DNA of 63,949 nucleotides, counting the filler, from Basidiobolus ranarum (Eukaryota): the NCBI GenBank assembly GCA_040143965.1. It is 3 parts of 3 records of this genome, joined end to end, with 100 filler letters (N's around TTAATTAATTAA, not from the genome) between each part and the next. Parts side by side here need not be neighbours in the genome. Positions count along the whole stretch, not along the records: positions 21,935 to 43,741 come from JASJQH010007072.1; 2 more parts are not named here. One strand, given 5' to 3'. The translations under genes were made by a program, and so were the position numbers. The notes under the pieces were generated by a model, which was not told the origin of the DNA, made no database searches, and was given only the letters and a program-made list of their open reading frames with translations. This document shows positions 21,835-44,216 of this stretch, in pieces. The number at the start of each line of letters is the position of its first letter. Within the stretch, counting starts at the first letter, position 1.

Positions 21835-21934
21835 NNNNNNNNNNNNNNNNNNNNNNNNNNNNNNNNNNNNNNNNNNNNTTAATTAATTAANNNNNNNNNN
21901 NNNNNNNNNNNNNNNNNNNNNNNNNNNNNNNNNN
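21835..21934. other. Assembly gap with artificial TTAATTAATTAA linker
   Basis: 100-nt spacer of Ns with a central stop-in-all-frames linker. Confidence 0.97.
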
Positions 21935-30035: not shown

Positions 30036-30644
30036 TTACTTCGTTTTCTTGGTTGGTGAAGAAGTTTTTATCGGCTTTGTACGCTTCTTAGTGGTGGTCA
30101 CTTTAGTGCGTGTCTTGGAATCCTTAGTAGGGATTACCATAGCATTGTCCGCAATGTTGGTGGCTTCCTTGGTTTTAATTCCTTTAGGTTTCTTCTCTTT
30201 GGGCTTGGGAGCAGGGGTCGGAGATCCTTTCTTAGATTTCTTTTCCTTGGCAACATTTTTATTCTCTTTTTTTTCAACAGGTTTGAGTTTGGGCTTAGGC
30301 TCTGTTGGCTTCTTCGCCAGTTTTACAGGTCCCGAGGGGCCTTTAGGTTGAGTGAAGTGTTCCGAGGTTACACTACGTTTAAGAGCAAGATTAAATAGGT
30401 TATCAAAAGTATCGCCAACTTTGTAATTGGCTTGAATGTATTTCTTAATTGCTTGGCGCGATGAGCCATTACGCTCCTTAAGGTTGACGATTGCTGCGGT
30501 GATCATATCTTTGTAAGTTGGATTATTGTTGGTAGCTTTCTTGGCTGTAGGTGACTTCTTAATAGGCTTGACTACCTTAGCTTTGACTGGAGTAACCTTC
30601 TTCTCTGGAGTTCTGGATGTACGATCATTACGAGGAGTAAGCAT
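30036..30644 (-). CDS. HHO1: Linker histone H1
   Basis: Globular domain [29 protein letters not shown]...[11 protein letters not shown]; Lys/Pro-rich tails; first ATG at 30644. Confidence 0.93.
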
Positions 30645-32897
30645 GATGAATAGATTCAAGAGACCAAAGATGGTAGTTGCTTATGTAACCCAAGGGCTAT
30701 CTGGGAAGGGAGGAAAAAGTAGAATTGTGAGTTCTACTTACAAATTGTCTTCAATTTATATCTGATCTGACAGGCCTCAACATCAACATCACATATCTCT
30801 TGGCTGATAGAGCCCGAGATTGTGAGCAAATCAATCACCAGTAAATTGGGATAAGTATAACCTGTGCTAATGAAACATTGTGAGTGGCAAATAGCTCAGC
30901 ATTTCGATTTCATTACTCACCTGCATGTAGTTGCCAATATGCTCTACATACTTGTCAGTGGCACATATATCCTTCACACTATCCATACGGCGGTCACGCG
31001 TATAGTCCATCAAGAATTCAAAAGATACACGTGCTGGCTAGTCAAAATACAAATCATTTGGAATCTGTTTAACCACTTCTGATCGATATTTCCCTACCGA
31101 ACAACGAACGCAGTGAGGCAATATTCTTGACAATCTTCTAAATTAATCATTTTAAATCAGCGGTGGTGGTATCACTTGGCTTGATTGAAGCATGTACCGA
31201 TTTCTATGCCGCATAACGTCTAACTACTCGGAAGCTCTCTTAACAAGGGATGAATTAACAGCCATCTTGATGAGACTTCTAACATCAAATCAATCCTGAG
31301 TGTGGTTATATTATTACCACCACAAAGGAATGTCTCATTGATTGCCATACGACCTTTCTAAGAACTATCCCTATCCCTTAATTTGCTCAAGTGATTTTCA
31401 TTTGAGGTTAAGGAGTAAATGGGATGGTCACCTACCACTGCAGCCAATTATACAATAAACTACTATCCTATATTTATCTTGCGAGTTAAGTGGCTATATA
31501 TTGGGGGATATCAATACATGTAGTACATGATGACCTGTCAACACGAATCTAAGCATGTAGCTCCTTGATCGTTGGTACTGGTGACAGACAGACAGGTTAA
31601 TTCATGAAGTGTCTGTGATACTTGCTATTCAGTCAGTCTTCTGCCATCAAATCAAGCGCAGTATTAAGTATAGTACAACAGTTACAAAGATTACCTGCTA
31701 TCTTACTCTTTATTCGTGTCTTTATAGCATTATTGAATCTTCTCGATGCAAATTTATCCTCCTAAAGCCTCATTATCCAGAGATCAATATATGGCTGTAC
31801 CGAGTCGAGATTAGCAGGCTAAACTTTGGTGATATCACTATTAATACTATTAGTAATATTAAATCTGAGAGCGATATGATGCATTTGATATGGCCATACG
31901 ATTCAAAGTAAAGATACTGGTATCAAGAGAGGTCTATAATATGAATCCCATCAATACTTCATAGAGTGAAGATTCCAGTCATGCTTAGTGAATGATACAA
32001 TTATCATATGAATGATCTTACGTGATCAACTTTATTTTACAATCGTCAACTATGGACAATGTTTCAGAAAAGGTCAACTTGGGTGAGGGACAGCTCTTCT
32101 AATAAAAACCTACGATTATCAAGGTCATTTGCATTTATGATTTTCCTCATATGTTGTTAAACGAAACTACTGATGACAGAGTTGAGCATGAATTGGTTGT
32201 GAATAACAAGGGTAACGAGTATCAGTCACTGTTATTTCTTGATTTTGTTTTCTACTGAGTTCTGCTTGGGAATAGATAACGATTCATTTGAAATTTGACC
32301 ATGATCGTTTCTGCACAGAATTTGGCAGACAACATTCGACCTGCACAGCTAGCCTATCTCTAACTTAGAGTCTCCTTATCTAATGGATTCGACACTTCCA
32401 TAAAGAAGCAATCAATGGTGATTTGGATCTAACAATTTCTGCTAACATGTTCGCTTGAATGCGAGACCGAGGTACAATAAGGGCTCATACATGAGATCAG
32501 CACACTATTCATTATCTCGTGTCAACAATTCCACTGTTGCGTTTAGAGTTTGGATCACTTTCTACAATGTCCAGCAATGAGATTGATTTATAACATACAC
32601 ATTTGAGGCGATTACTCAACCCGAACAGTACAAATAAACTATATGCTTTACTGAAGAGATTGCACATATGAAACTAATCTCCTACAGCGTTTTGCTTGGT
32701 ACATATGAAGGAATCTCATTACTGTCTAACATTAAGTAGGGAAAAAGAGGGCGCCAGGAACACGCTTCCATATCTGAATGGATGCAATTGGTCATGTTTA
32801 CATCTAGCTCTATGAAGAATTTCTTAATAATGAATCAAATGTGTAAATCACTAAAGATACCGTCGAGAAGAGTTGTATGTATGCGTGTTCAAGTGAC

Positions 32898-34699: not shown

Positions 34700-35371
34700 A
34701 TGAAAGTTCTCTCGTTGACCTCTTTGGCTGTTGTTGCTTTGTCTTTCGCCCAGACCGTTGTTGGTACGTACAAGTCGACTCTTTACATATGTGACTATTG
34801 ATTTTTATTGATCTTTCATCAATTTTGATTAGCTGCCGATTGGAGGATTACTGATCTCCCAGAAGCTAATCGAATTCTTACTTGCAGCCAACAGACCGCT
34901 TATTGCGCAAACAACTGCGGTGGTGATGGTCCTGAATTCGCTCCTATGAATTTCTGTAATCCCAAGACTATGGGTTGGGGATGTGGTTGCAAAATTAAGA
35001 AGCCAGACTTTCCACCCTACCGCTGGCCCGTTGTCGTTGCTGAATGTGAGGGAATGAAAGCTGACTGCAACGCTAAATGCCCCCAGGACAACAATATCAA
35101 CACTTGTTACACCGCTTGTACTGGAAAGTATCTTTGCAACACCGACAAAGCTCCTCCATCGTACTTGCAAGTTAGCGATGTGAATGCCACACCTGCTTAT
35201 ACTTCAGGTGGCACCCCTGCTGCTACTGGTACCAACCCAACCAACGCTGCTGGAACAGGAACCTCCACTTCTCCCACTGACACCACTAAGCCCAATGGTG
35301 CTTCCTTGGTTTCCGCTGGACTTGGATCATCTGTTGCCGCCTTGGTCGCTGTTGCCTACATGGCTCTCTAA
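34700..35371 (+). CDS. Predicted GPI-anchored Cys-rich surface protein (intron 34764-34832)
   Basis: Signal peptide MKVLSLTSLAVVALSFAQ; Cys domain CSQQTAYCANNC...NFC...CGC...C...C...C...C...C; Thr/Gly stalk; NGA omega site plus hydrophobic C-terminus. Confidence 0.9.
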
Positions 35372-38028
35372 TTAGTGATATAGATATCATTCCTACACTA
35401 CCTCATTAGTACAATTTACGAACCATAATATCCCTAATTTTTGCTGGCTCACCCAAGATTATTAAACTGATTTTATTCATATCATATCGTATCTAATGTT
35501 CCCAATTTGAATTCAACATCTATACCAGACCATTATTCTCCTCGTGGAAATAAGCTAAATCCCTGATTATTTCCAGGTATGGCTCCTGATTCATTAGCCA
35601 ATTAAATCTAATGAAAGCTCGAGTCACCCAAGACTCGAAGCCAGTGAAGGATGTTTCTGTTTCGAAAATTCCTGGATTTTTTAATTTATCCACTTGGCCC
35701 CAATGAACTTGATCAACAGGTTACTTTTAACCATACTCATCCAAAACGCCTGAAGAAAGACTTAGGGCTAGGGTATGCTATTCTAGGTGATTAATAGGAA
35801 TCCTATTATGAGCCATATAAACCACAATCTACACCAGTCGAAAGTTATGTTAGCTAATTCGTTAGGAATGATGGTGAATTTTTAGATGAAAACCCAAAAT
35901 CTCCTGAGAATATCTGGTTGCTTTCATTTCTTTAAGTAGTAGAGAATAATTTTTTAATACATTGAGAGTATGATATGGATAAGAGTTTGACAGAGACTGA
36001 TGGACATTCCTTGCTAAGAATAATATGGTCAATTGCAAATCCAACACAGAAAAGGGTATTCAAGATAGTATCCTGGCCAATGCATGTAACAATACTACAA
36101 TGGTCCTAAGCTAAAACGACCTACTGGGAAAGCTTTCAAAAGTAGTGCTGGATTGGCTATAAATGGCAGGAATTCACTGATAACAATGCTGAATCATGCA
36201 CAAGATATTCTATTCAGCCTTCATTGACTTCTTTATCTTTGGCCTCAGTATCTAGTCTCCTCTTATTGGCTCAATATGTATTCATCAAACATTTCCTGAT
36301 ACACATACAAACTGCTAGTTCTATTGAGGTTGATCTCACAACAAAAGCAACTCTATATACATAGGATATACGATAAAAGCACATTCCACATTCCAAACGT
36401 TGGATCAAATGGCTTATGGTCAGGTGATTTTCCTAAAGAGCCTCGGCGACTAAGTGAGATAGATCAAATCAGGCAAGTCGGATCTCCACAAGTAAAGCTG
36501 GAAATCCATGGGTTGCTTTAATCGTTGTAGAGTTAACATGAGCAGTGTATATCAAATCCCGATACAAACACGTGATCCACGAGTAAGCATATATCGATTA
36601 AGAAATTATTGTGGGCTGTCTGATCCCGTGATAATAATCGCTTGTCATCAATAAGAAAATCATCGGAAGCTCAAGATTGAATTAGCCTCGGATATATACT
36701 TGTTTAGATTGCCCCGAATAATTCGAAGACAGGCATACATCCATAAATCCAATAAATAAGCTTCCAATTTCAATACTCTTGTTCAAATGGATAACATCCT
36801 ATCCAAATAGGAAATCATTACTGCATCAAGATTCAAGTACGAGACATTCCGTAGCTGTAGCCAGTTTCTAGGTCCATTGGAGAGTGATGATGACGAAGAT
36901 AGAATGAAACTATCTGTAAATCCTCTTTAGAATGTGAATTGGTCTGGTTCTGAGCTCCCCATGCACTTGCAAATAGAGTTAGTGAGGTATCTAACCGATC
37001 ATTGGCCATCGTTAAATCTGGAAAATCATACCGTTATGTTCTCTTTTAGATCAGCCATTCTCTCCTTAATACAACCTAGTACTCATTTATCGCCTAGAAC
37101 AATGTCTAAACCCCTGAACACAGTAAAGACACATTAACTGAGGGAATGCAGAGATCATACGAACTAGGATTCATGACCATTTGCATGTACGTCCAGATAC
37201 TGGGCAATCCCAACTCTTGATGAGCATCTCAAAGTGATCCTCATTCTATCCTCCTTAACAACACAGTATACATTCACATGCTCAAATACACAATGTATGG
37301 AAAAGCTCACAATACATGGAGGAATCGAAGCCTTTGTTGCCATCAAACAAATTCATATTCTTCCTCCGTAGCACTTTAGATTCCTTACTACTCACAATCA
37401 AATGGTTTCCGGATCAGTATGGACTTCCACGAAAGCGAAAACAATGAGGTGAATTGCAGAAGTGTGAATAAAATCCCTACAAATCCAAAACTTACCGTTT
37501 CCTGTTTGTGCTACATGAACACCTTGGATTGTTAGCAGTGATCTTACCATACATCGATGAACATGTCAAAGATTCAGATATGCTCCCCTCAGGTCACTAC
37601 TGTTACAATTGGATCAGTGGCTTGAACATCGAGATTCAATGGTTTTATCATGAGTCACCTAAAATCTTCATTCAACCCAATGGAGTGCTATCCTCACGTA
37701 ACTAAGGTCGATTTAATAAACAACGCGAAGTTTGTAGGCCCTACATTCTGCACCCCAAATTAGATTAAAGAAGCAGATGGAGTTCTTTTGATCGGGTAAA
37801 ATCCCAAGCAATCCGGATCTTGGTGGAACGCTTGGTGAGGCAGTGGTCGTAGGTTATTGTTATTCAACTGAATTCCCTTGCTCTTACCCCTGTCTTGGAG
37901 TATATTTTTCGGACTATTGTTGAGTTACGTTTTCTTATCCTGGTTTTACACCCAGTACTGACTGCAATAGCTTCTATTATTTGAGAGCTTCAGTCTCTAT
38001 CCACTCCACAAACCACTTCCTCTCTCTT

Positions 38029-39062
38029 ATGTTCTCCATCAAAAATATTATCAACTCAGATACAACCCAAGTTCCTGAACAGATAGCTCCCAAGTTCTCT
38101 TTCGATACCAAAGCAATTAGGGTAAAATACTCTTGTTTAGACAAAACCACATTACCAGATAGAACCCTCACTACGAAGGTAAATTCCATATATTTCTTAC
38201 AAACAACTACGCTATTGTAGAGAATTTTCTACATGTGTTTAGTAAACTCATTCACTATTTGACTCATATGTGCTAGTATCTCGGAGTACTGAAAACACGC
38301 CTTTCTTTAGCCAAATTTAAAGTCGAAAACGAGTGGGAAGACAAATCCTTCCCAGAGATTCTCCAACTACATAAGAATAAAACATCAAACTCAAGTTTTA
38401 GTTACTCATTAAAGGGGAAAGTTGCTCCTTATATTACTCCAACCACACCCATAAATACTGGACAAAAGCGAAAACATGATGGGGATCCAATATCCCACAG
38501 AGCCCTAACTCCTCAAAGAGTATTCAACTCTAATGCGAACATCTTGAACTCAAATCACCTTAAGAATGGCTTTCTCGTTGACCGCGCAGATAAACGTCAC
38601 TGTAGGGGAATGGTATCACCTCTTCTTAATACCAAAACATTTAGTGGTAACGCCAAGCTAGAAAAGGAGAACATCAATCCATATTCAAATCATTCTGTCA
38701 ATTACACCACACCACCTAGACAAGCTGTCTTGAGAAGTACCAATTTCCTACCAGACTCCTCCAATCAAATCCCACCTACGTTAACTTGGTCCACTTCTCA
38801 ATCAATACCAAATATCGGCAAATTCACGAACGCATGTTCGTCTTTGCCTACTTTTGAGGCAGCAGAGACTATCATGCTACTCTGTAGCCCACATTCCTCC
38901 ACTCCTGGTACCCCACAATTGTTGGCTTTGGAATGCCCATCTATACACGGCTCTTCCACCTCTTCAAGGCTACACACATCTGACCAAAATAACCAAAGTG
39001 TATTCACTTCGCCCACTACCACGGGACCTTACATATCAGTAAGCCCCTGCCTCAGTGAATGA
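38029..39062 (+). CDS. Whi5/Nrm1-like G1/S transcriptional repressor (exons 38029-38178 and 38277-39062, ~311 aa)
   Basis: Phase-0 GT-AG intron 38179-38276; exon 2 begins YLGVLKTRLSLAKFKVENEWEDKSFPEI (GTB/Whi5 motif); many S/T-P sites; C-terminal EAAETIMLLCSP. Confidence 0.75.
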
Positions 39063-42880: not shown

Positions 42881-43580
42881 TGTTAAAGTATTTAGGAGCC
42901 TGTTGGAAGTGCACATATTTAAAAATGTATATAACTGAGAGCTTTGAAGCTGGTAAAATATTCTAAGCAATTTCCAATTGAGGATTATGAATGATATCTT
43001 AGTAATATATAGGATAACTAAGCACAAAGCTATATATATATATATCTATATGGGTGTTTAGGCAATGCCAACTTCAGCACTCTCCCTCAACTAAATGTTC
43101 ATATAAACTAATCCCAGGGATGGTCTAAATTTTTCAAATTTCAGTCCAGCCAAGTGTTTAGTTAATATATCAGCTATCATGCCTTCTGTAGATCAATAAG
43201 TTTAGTCAATAAGCATATTCCATGGTTTCTGTAAGCTCATGGATATTGCTATAAGCCATAGTCTGCTTTTAGGAGTCTGCAAATTTTTTAGGATTTTCTG
43301 GGTCCCCAAATCCATCCAGCTGGTCATATAGATCTCATCAGCAGACTCACCATGCAGAAAAGTAGCTTTAACATCCATTTGATATATCATATACTGGTAT
43401 TTAGCTGAAATGGCTAAAGTCAATCTAATCAATTGGATCTGTGCAACAGGAGCAAAAGTTTCCATATAATCTATTCCTAGTGATTTGGAATACCATTTGG
43501 CTGTTTGTCTAGCCTTGAACCTCTTTATATTCCTGTTAGAGTAGTACTTAACTTTCTGCACCCATTGGCAGCTCATTCAT
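42881..43580 (-). mobile_element. Degenerate Ty1/copia 3' end: RT (RVT_2) and RNase H fragments, PPT, internally deleted 3' LTR
   Basis: RFKARQTAK...GIDYMETFAPVA...QMDVKATFLHG (copia RT); MIADILTK (RNase H end); purine tract TTGAGGGAGAG (43080-43090) abutting LTR TGCTG...TTAACA (43079-42881). Confidence 0.9.
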
Positions 43581-43741: not shown

Positions 43742-43841
43742 NNNNNNNNNNNNNNNNNNNNNNNNNNNNNNNNNNNNNNNNNNNNTTAATTAATTAANNN
43801 NNNNNNNNNNNNNNNNNNNNNNNNNNNNNNNNNNNNNNNNN
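43742..43841. other. Assembly gap with artificial TTAATTAATTAA linker
   Basis: 100-nt spacer identical to the first gap. Confidence 0.97.
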
Positions 43842-44216
43842 GAAACAGTAAAAGCCGTAAATTCTCTTCGAGAACAACTTCGTTATTATGCTATTGCTGA
43901 AATCGCTGGACGTCCTTTTCTGGTAACTAAAAATGATGTGGTTGTAGTAGATCATATGAAGGAAGTTCAGTTAGGAGATGTCTTAAAATTGAACAGAGTT
44001 CGGGAACTTGGCTCCAAAGACTATACTATTCAAGGAAAGCCTTATGTATCTCAAGATTTTTACAGTGTTCGTGCTACAGTTATTGAGCAACCTAAAGGAA
44101 AGCAAATTGAAATCATTAAAAAGAAGAGAAGAAAGGGTTATCAACGCCGACTTACTCATAGACAACCATATACTGTTCTCAGAATTTCCGAGGTGGATGT
44201 TAATAAATTGGAGTAA
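43842..44216 (+). CDS. MRPL49: Mitochondrial ribosomal protein bL21m (5'-truncated by gap)
   Basis: Frame open from the gap: YYAIAEIAGRPFLVTKND...ELGSKDYTIQGKPY...KKKRRKGYQRRLTHRQPYTVLRISEV (L21 family). Confidence 0.9.
   Translation, partial: ETVKAVNSLREQLRYYAIAEIAGRPFLVTKNDVVVVDHMKEVQLGDVLKLNRVRELGSKDYTIQGKPYVSQDFYSVRATVIEQPKGKQIEIIKKKRRKGYQRRLTHRQPYTVLRISEVDVNKLE

Follow-up and report, generated by a model that had tools for sequence, protein, structure and literature searches.

Does the locus at positions 38,029 to 39,062 of a 63.9-kb window of Basidiobolus ranarum DNA encode a repressor of G1/S transcription of the kind known in yeast as Whi5, and what would such a gene add to the picture of this family in early-diverging fungi? 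The window is the whole stretch of DNA that was analyzed (63,949 nucleotides [nt], filler included), and all coordinates given here are positions along it. An earlier note on this DNA, written from the sequence alone, had proposed that two pieces of open reading frame are joined by an intron into a Whi5/Nrm1-like protein with several sites of the cyclin-dependent kinase (CDK) type. We conclude, with a probability of roughly 85%, that an intact gene of two exons occupies the locus and that its product of 311 amino acids is a largely disordered member of the Whi5/Nrm1 family (PF08528) and belongs to the Whi5 type. The source organism is an early-diverging fungus, as the note had it (phylum Basidiobolomycota), which fits the restriction of the Whi5 family to Fungi, Medina et al. 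(2016) reporting no member outside this kingdom.

Gene model and splicing

Rebuilding the model by script, with exon 1 and exon 2 joined across a phase-0 intron (Table 1), gave a product of 311 amino acids that is identical to database protein P0001 (100% identity over 100% of the query), and the joining proposed earlier was thus exact. P0001 carries the name 'hypothetical protein K7432_005172 [Basidiobolus ranarum]' in two sources and has PF08528 already attached to it in the public protein database. The description of the gene as hidden or hard to detect had to be dropped, since the public annotation holds the same model with the same family listed.

The start codon (38029-38031) is the first in-frame ATG downstream of a TGA at 37921-37923, and an open frame of 261 codons, as in exon 2, would arise at any given start with P of about 2.6e-8 from the base composition of the window, in whose six frames only nine frames of at least 261 codons occur. 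The fraction of G+C is 0.296 in the intron, 0.373 in exon 1, and 0.425 in exon 2, and a YTRAY-like TTGAC lies 14 nt upstream of the 3' splice site as a candidate branch site. If the intron were retained, the frame would close at a TAG (38218-38220) after 63 residues, and the first methionine in exon 2 is residue 162, downstream of the GTB motif (the Pfam Whi5 motif); the splice is therefore required to make the motif.

Comparison with P0002, the likely orthologue in Basidiobolus meristosporus, places the junction at the same nucleotides. When P0002 was aligned to the window by tblastn, its residues 160-209 covered exon 1 in frame 1 in a high-scoring segment pair that ends exactly at 38178 (...RTLTTK), and the next segment, which lies in a different frame, opens at precisely 38277 (YLGVLKTRL...), with no protein similarity to P0002 inside the intron; the similarity breaks between TTK and YLG, precisely at the exon junction. 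Furthermore, the predicted helix at residues 45-67 is continuous across the junction between residues 50 and 51 (AlphaFold2), and the exon 1 residues M1, F2, S3, I4, and R45 are invariant in all six Basidiobolus proteins described below. From this comparative evidence, good but short of proof, we infer splicing of this intron in vivo.

Two other coding possibilities at the locus were rejected. The P0002 model has 159 additional N-terminal residues, and the equivalent frame upstream of the B. ranarum start is closed by the TGA at 37921-37923, with a similarity that is weak and crosses frames. On the minus strand, the longest open frames under the locus are 83 and 76 codons, and no support for a gene was found among them. 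We also observe that the 5' leader (37849-38028, plus strand) shows patchy similarity to P0002 residues 100-159, for example in FSYPG(L/F)TP and in LSL directly before the methionine, and that this similarity runs across a frame change and across the same TGA. Two explanations offer themselves: conservation of the leader as DNA, or a B. meristosporus model that extends too far.

Relatives in Basidiobolus and membership in the Whi5 family

When 1.84 billion cluster representatives were searched exhaustively with phmmer, six proteins came back at E <= 0.001, including the query itself (E = 2e-204). Three of these are true relatives, aligned from residue 1 to about residue 295 (P0002, 3.7e-44; P0003, 4.0e-32; P0004, 1.4e-24); the remaining two, P0005 and P0006, were discarded as spurious low-complexity matches, their Pfam content being bacterial Ig-like domains and phage domains. 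A profile search (E <= 0.01) added P0007 and P0008, and at E <= 10 it gave no further protein; being word-indexed, this search ranks candidates by shared words and scores the top 8000, so that distant Whi5 proteins may be among those that it leaves unscored. The six proteins come in equal parts from B. ranarum (P0001, P0003, and P0007) and from B. meristosporus CBS 931.73 (P0002, P0004, and P0008).

P0004 and P0007 are 70% identical, with P0008 at 55 to 57% identity to both, and the query P0001 shares 40% identity with P0002 and 37% with P0003. By these values P0002 is likely the orthologue of P0001, and the pairwise identities suggest two subgroups, one of the P0004/P0007/P0008 type and one of the P0001/P0002/P0003 type.

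Membership in the Whi5 family is carried by the second exon. Its translation matches Whi5 (PF08528) as the sole Pfam family, at 30.5 bits (gathering score, 25; E = 2.8e-7), covering profile positions 2-25 of 25, whereas exon 1 alone has no Pfam match. The full-length proteins score similarly (30.2 bits for P0001; 30.5, 34.7, and 31.9 bits for the relatives among P0002 to P0004), so that the precomputed annotation of the database, which lists PF08528 for all six Basidiobolus proteins, was rescored and confirmed for four of the six (30.2 to 34.7 bits). In the ESM Atlas, 29 of the 30 nearest feature matches fall in the Whi5 set (top score, 0.90). The hidden Markov model match that the earlier note had named as a check is thus present, and so is the conservation of the motif in related fungi: R45, Y51, L52, K56, R58, L59, A62, K65, W70, E71, S74, F75, and E77 are invariant in the six-protein alignment, 12 of them lying between residues 51 and 77.

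The GTB motif itself resembles that of the Saccharomyces cerevisiae protein and of the Whi5 homologues SpunWHI5b, UramWHI5a, and MverWHI5 of Medina et al. (2016) in its conserved tryptophan (ENEW or NGW), and its stretch KSFPEI recurs unchanged in the chytrid SpunWHI5b. Beyond the motif, we observe that P197 is invariant in all six proteins and that these share an N-terminal MFSI(K/Q)(N/H)(I/L) at residues 1-7, with M1, F2, S3, I4, and S10 invariant. Among the sequences of the Whi5/Nrm1 file of Medina et al. (2016), none begins with an N-terminal block of this MFSI type, which was seen in Basidiobolus only.

Table 1. Elements of the predicted Whi5-type gene of B. ranarum and candidate elements upstream of it
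Feature	Position	Strand	Description
SCB-like CRCGAAA	37428..37434	+	601 nt upstream of ATG; lead only
MCB-like ACGCGAA	37723..37729	+	306 nt upstream of ATG; lead only
Exon 1	38029..38178	+	150 nt, 50 codons; MFSIKNIINSD...RTLTTK; last codons ACG AAG
Intron	38179..38276	+	98 nt, phase 0; GTAAAT...TGCTAG
Exon 2	38277..39062	+	starts TAT; 261 codons plus TGA stop at 39060-39062
GTB / Pfam Whi5 motif LKTRLSLAKFKVENEWEDKSFPEI	38289..38360	+	residues 55-78; PF08528 match
Basic cluster K114 R115 K116, candidate nuclear localization signal	38466..38474	+	adjoins conserved T107-P; K114 and R115 invariant in 6/6
C-terminal conserved block FEAAETIMLLCSPHSSTPGTP	38853..38915	+	residues 243-263; Whi5 motif 3 equivalent by sequence; CDK-type sites S254, T259, T262

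The C-terminal block and the distinction between Whi5 and Nrm1

Towards the C-terminus, P0001 carries EAAETIMLLCSP at residues 244-255, in a block in which A246, E247, S254, P255, P260, T262, P263, and E269 are invariant in all six proteins. We compared this block by eye with the whole Whi5/Nrm1 FASTA of Medina et al. (2016; Figure 3-source data 3), in which the corresponding stretch reads EEATAVETLMLLSSPTKK in ScerWHI5 (AVETLMLLSSP), EAIETLMSLSSP in KlacWHI5, KtheWHI5, and SkluWHI5, DAIE(T/S)LLFMSSP in FgraWHI5a and NcraWHI5a, DAAELMMFLAHSPSP in CneoWHI5, QAARTILMLSSP in MverWHI5 and MalpWHI5b (AARTILMLSSP), EAAQTILMLSS in UramWHI5a, and IAAQNLMLMSSP in LhyaWHI5c. The AAETIMLLCSP of P0001 matches the block in the yeast, Mucoromycota, and chytrid sequences alike, with a shared pattern of A-A/V-E/R-T-I/L-M/L-L-L-S/C-S-P that includes a CDK serine. 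In yeast Whi5 this stretch is motif 3 (residues 245-267), which includes Ser262, a CDK site that with three others is critical for inactivating the protein, and a peptide of motif 3 binds one of motif 1 as long as the latter carries no phosphate, according to Hasan et al. (2014). Judged by sequence, EAAETIMLLCSP is the second conserved block of the family, motif 3, and the serine within it corresponds to yeast Ser262. A literature text search for the C-terminal motif string together with Whi5 gave no match, and the motif strings do not occur in the running text of Hasan et al. (2014), where the motifs sit in figures.

The two arms of the family, Whi5 and Nrm1, were compared by eye through ScerWHI5, KlacWHI5, MverWHI5, MalpWHI5b, UramWHI5a, LhyaWHI5c, and McirWHI5d on the one side and ScerNRM1, KlacNRM1, and SpomNRM1 on the other. 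With the Nrm1 proteins of S. cerevisiae and Schizosaccharomyces pombe, the Basidiobolus proteins have in common the Pfam family, a GTB-type helix of the kind that binds Swi6/Cdc10, and a hydrophobic block of the A-A-x-x-L-L type towards the C-terminus. The Nrm1 version of the GTB motif in the Medina file lacks the tryptophan and is of the LRLQFAYYKYKTKQ type (RLQLA.YK..T.Q), and the Nrm1 block (AAKSLLQL) stands at the extreme C-terminus without S-P, whereas the Basidiobolus proteins carry the Whi5 version of both features. Because the GTB motif keeps its tryptophan and a motif-3 block with the CDK serine is present, we assign P0001 to the Whi5 type rather than to the Nrm1 type, which supports the reading in the earlier note of a Whi5-family protein.

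An Nrm1-like role would make of P0001 a co-repressor encoded by a G1/S target gene, one that rebinds MBF after Start and shuts transcription down in S phase by negative feedback, instead of a pre-Start inhibitor that is removed by G1 CDK. The motif and the Pfam family common to both arms are compatible with such a role, as is a division of both roles between at least three Basidiobolus paralogues in two subgroups, and the 1 kb upstream of the ATG contains what would be expected of a G1/S-induced gene, namely one element resembling the MluI cell cycle box (MCB) and one resembling the Swi4/6 cell cycle box (SCB). These are single matches, however, of a kind that is to be met by chance: ACGCGAA occurs five times in the window (0.08 per kb, or a chance of about 8% per kb, not significant alone) and CRCGAAA nine times (0.14 per kb, or about 13% per kb). 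The E2F-type TTTSSCGC does not occur anywhere in the window. Since all six Basidiobolus proteins keep the Whi5-type GTB (W70 E71) together with S-P after the motif-3 block, and the Nrm1 sequences of the file have neither, we regard an Nrm1-like role as unlikely.

CDK-type sites and predicted structure

All strings quoted in the earlier note, LKTRLSLAKFKVENEWEDKSFPEI and EAAETIMLLCSP as well as the CDK-type TPTTP (residues 104-108), TPQR (128-131), and TPPR (195-198), are present in P0001. The protein contains 10 S/T-P sites, compared with 5.9 +/- 2.0 in 5000 shuffles, a modest enrichment (P = 0.044). Seven of the 10 lie in alignment columns where at least four of the six relatives share S/T-P (S254 and T262 in 6/6; T107 and T259 in 5/6; T128, T195, and S295 in 4/6), and T107 as a residue is invariant throughout. 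Beside T107-P lies the KRK cluster of Table 1, which could plausibly be a nuclear localization signal modulated by CDK.

AlphaFold2, run on the six-row alignment, gave a mean predicted local distance difference test (pLDDT) score of 47.1, with 250 of the 311 residues below 50, which is weak evidence of disorder given so shallow an alignment. The only confident elements are helices at residues 45-67 and 75-87 (10-residue blocks with pLDDT of 68 to 83), and it is within these that the GTB motif falls. The ESM Atlas model offers a similar picture (pLDDT, 0.45); the structure matches obtained with it all have template modeling scores of at most 0.27, meaningless for a disordered model, and were set aside. 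A sequence profile search of the PDB found no match at E <= 10. The protein is thus predicted to be mostly disordered and ordered only in the helical signature region, which matches yeast Whi5, likewise disordered outside a small stretch with the family signature (Hasan et al., 2014).

P0001 is also like yeast Whi5 in its multiple S/T-P sites and in its length of about 300 residues. Unlike in yeast Whi5, where the motif is found at residues 181-205, the Basidiobolus GTB is close to the N-terminus (residues 51-78), as it also is in many forms from Mucoromycota and in those of S. pombe. In the part of P0001 that precedes the GTB, no counterpart of the yeast motif 1 could be placed, and outside the two motifs similarity to yeast and other non-Basidiobolus Whi5 proteins is undetectable by the phmmer and profile searches.

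Proposed function and alternative roles

By homology with yeast Whi5, the predicted hairpin at residues 45-87, which carries the GTB motif, would dock on the C-terminal region of a Swi6/Cdc10-type subunit of SBF/MBF and hold G1/S genes off, in part through the recruitment of histone deacetylases (HDACs). G1 cyclin-CDK would then phosphorylate S/T-P sites, the most conserved being T107 and, within or following the AAETIMLLCSP block, S254, T259, and T262, which would release the protein from SBF/MBF and probably change its localization. Travesa and coworkers are said, in papers citing their work of 2013, to have found that the GTB motif binds the Swi6 C-terminus. In yeast, Hasan et al. (2014) assign this binding to residues 181-205 of Whi5, and Huang et al. 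(2009) describe Whi5 as working partly through the HDACs Rpd3 and Hos3, an association that is reduced by G1 CDK activity; S. pombe Whi5 appears to act through Clr6. SBF/MBF binding, repression, CDK control, and the nuclear localization signal are properties that we infer for P0001 from its family membership.

The same logic of a CDK-released inhibitor that recruits HDACs to a G1/S transcription factor is described for Rb, p107, and p130. The likeness is one of role only, with no relationship in sequence or fold between the Rb pocket proteins and the Whi5-type P0001, in which Pfam (E <= 1) found neither RB_A nor RB_B pocket domains and Whi5 as the only family.

A different role for a genuine Whi5 protein is also conceivable, in which P0001 is a paralogue specialized for quiescence, stress, or spore formation and meiosis, in the manner of S. 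pombe Whi5/Mug54 or of Whi7, and the main control of size perhaps falls to the P0004/P0007/P0008 type. The literature describes S. pombe Whi5 as a repressor of MBF genes in quiescent cells that is meiotically up-regulated, and budding-yeast Whi7 as a stress-linked paralogue. The rapid evolution of P0001 and its orthologue, with 40% identity between species versus 70% for P0004 and P0007, fits a less constrained or specialized copy. Yet nothing in the sequence separates a specialized from a main role, and all conserved blocks are kept in P0001, and we consider such specialization improbable on present evidence.

These readings may be combined, if only speculatively. Whi5 would have expanded independently in Basidiobolus into a slow (P0004/P0007/P0008) and a fast (P0001/P0002/P0003) subgroup, between which pre-Start, post-Start, or quiescence roles may be divided, apart from the split into Whi5 and Nrm1 in Dikarya. 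The C-terminal block would be a phospho-gated docking helix, in which AAETIMLLSSP, bracketed by three conserved CDK sites, would dock a co-repressor (an HDAC complex). The A-A-x-x-L character of the block is something that we take to resemble Sin3-interaction helices. As a whole, we consider this combination unlikely.

Several observations weigh against our assignment of P0001 as a Whi5-type G1/S repressor. Outside Basidiobolus there is no full-length relative at E <= 10 in the profile search (6 of 8000 scored) or at E <= 0.001 in the exhaustive phmmer search, and the link to the wider family consists of a 24-residue motif plus a second block compared by eye only. The S/T-P enrichment is weak (P = 0.044), with the full S/T-P-x-K/R consensus at two sites only, and the C-terminal block is not predicted as a helix (pLDDT below 50, AlphaFold2). 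Furthermore, the five relatives are themselves gene predictions, so that the continuity across the exon junction is not fully independent support, and with at least three paralogues per species the role of P0001 may be specialized or partly redundant.

That the locus is not functional at all, the gene model being wrong or the motif having arisen by chance in non-coding or decaying DNA, is very improbable despite the public name, which is merely 'hypothetical protein', given an intact frame with a 261-codon exon (P ~2.6e-8), the Pfam E value of 2.8e-7, conservation over the entire length, exon 1 included, in five relatives from two species, and an exon/intron break that coincides with the end of orthologue similarity.

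Other features of the window

Two pairs of 44-N runs are found at 21835-21934 and 43742-43841, with 21,807 nt (21935-43741) between them, and the window seems to be made of several contigs or scaffold pieces joined together. In the piece that holds the gene, a lysine-rich frame of 214 codons (30036-30680, minus strand) matches the globular domain of linker histones H1/H5 (PF00538, 101 bits), and a cysteine-rich frame of 180 codons (34829-35371, plus strand) matches DUF7707 (28.5 bits against a cut-off of 23) and has a hydrophobic C-terminus, its product being possibly secreted or of the glycosylphosphatidylinositol type. At the end of the same contig lies a fragment of a copia-type reverse transcriptase (43202-43576, minus strand; PF07727 RVT_2, 73 bits, profile positions 18-100 of 244). 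Directly after an N run, an open frame starts that has a ribosomal protein L21 domain of the bacterial type (43842-44213, plus strand; PF00829, 94 bits), presumably that of mitochondrial bL21.

Significance for the Whi5 family and for Basidiobolus

The early origin of SBF-Whi5 in fungi, and its co-existence with E2F-Rb, are known from the literature. Medina et al. (2016) and Amses et al. (2022; PMC9457484) describe this co-existence in chytrids and 'zygomycetes', the latter having looked for E2F, Rb, SBF, and Whi5 across early-diverging lineages and mentioning Basidiobolus in another context; Merenyi et al. (2023) treat the replacement of E2F by SBF in general terms only. Basidiobolus has no occurrence in the main text of Medina et al. 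(2016) and is absent from its Whi5/Nrm1 file. Concerning the bearing on when the SBF/Whi5 circuit replaced E2F/Rb, on which the earlier note had remarked, the locus adds a data point and leads to no new conclusion beyond what is already published.

With gene model and Pfam match already public, the gene is a previously unremarked member of a known family. Its reading as such extends repressors of the Whi5 type, both family motifs intact, to Basidiobolomycota, a lineage missing from the 2016 Whi5/Nrm1 data set, and turns the annotation 'hypothetical protein' into that of a predicted Whi5-type G1/S repressor, alongside two paralogues in B. ranarum, without establishing a new principle. It also illustrates that a reading of raw sequence alone can recover a disordered regulator defined by short motifs, together with its intron, exactly. 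Basidiobolus has long been used for the cytology of mitosis, and these proteins offer a possible handle for work on the cell cycle in this genus.

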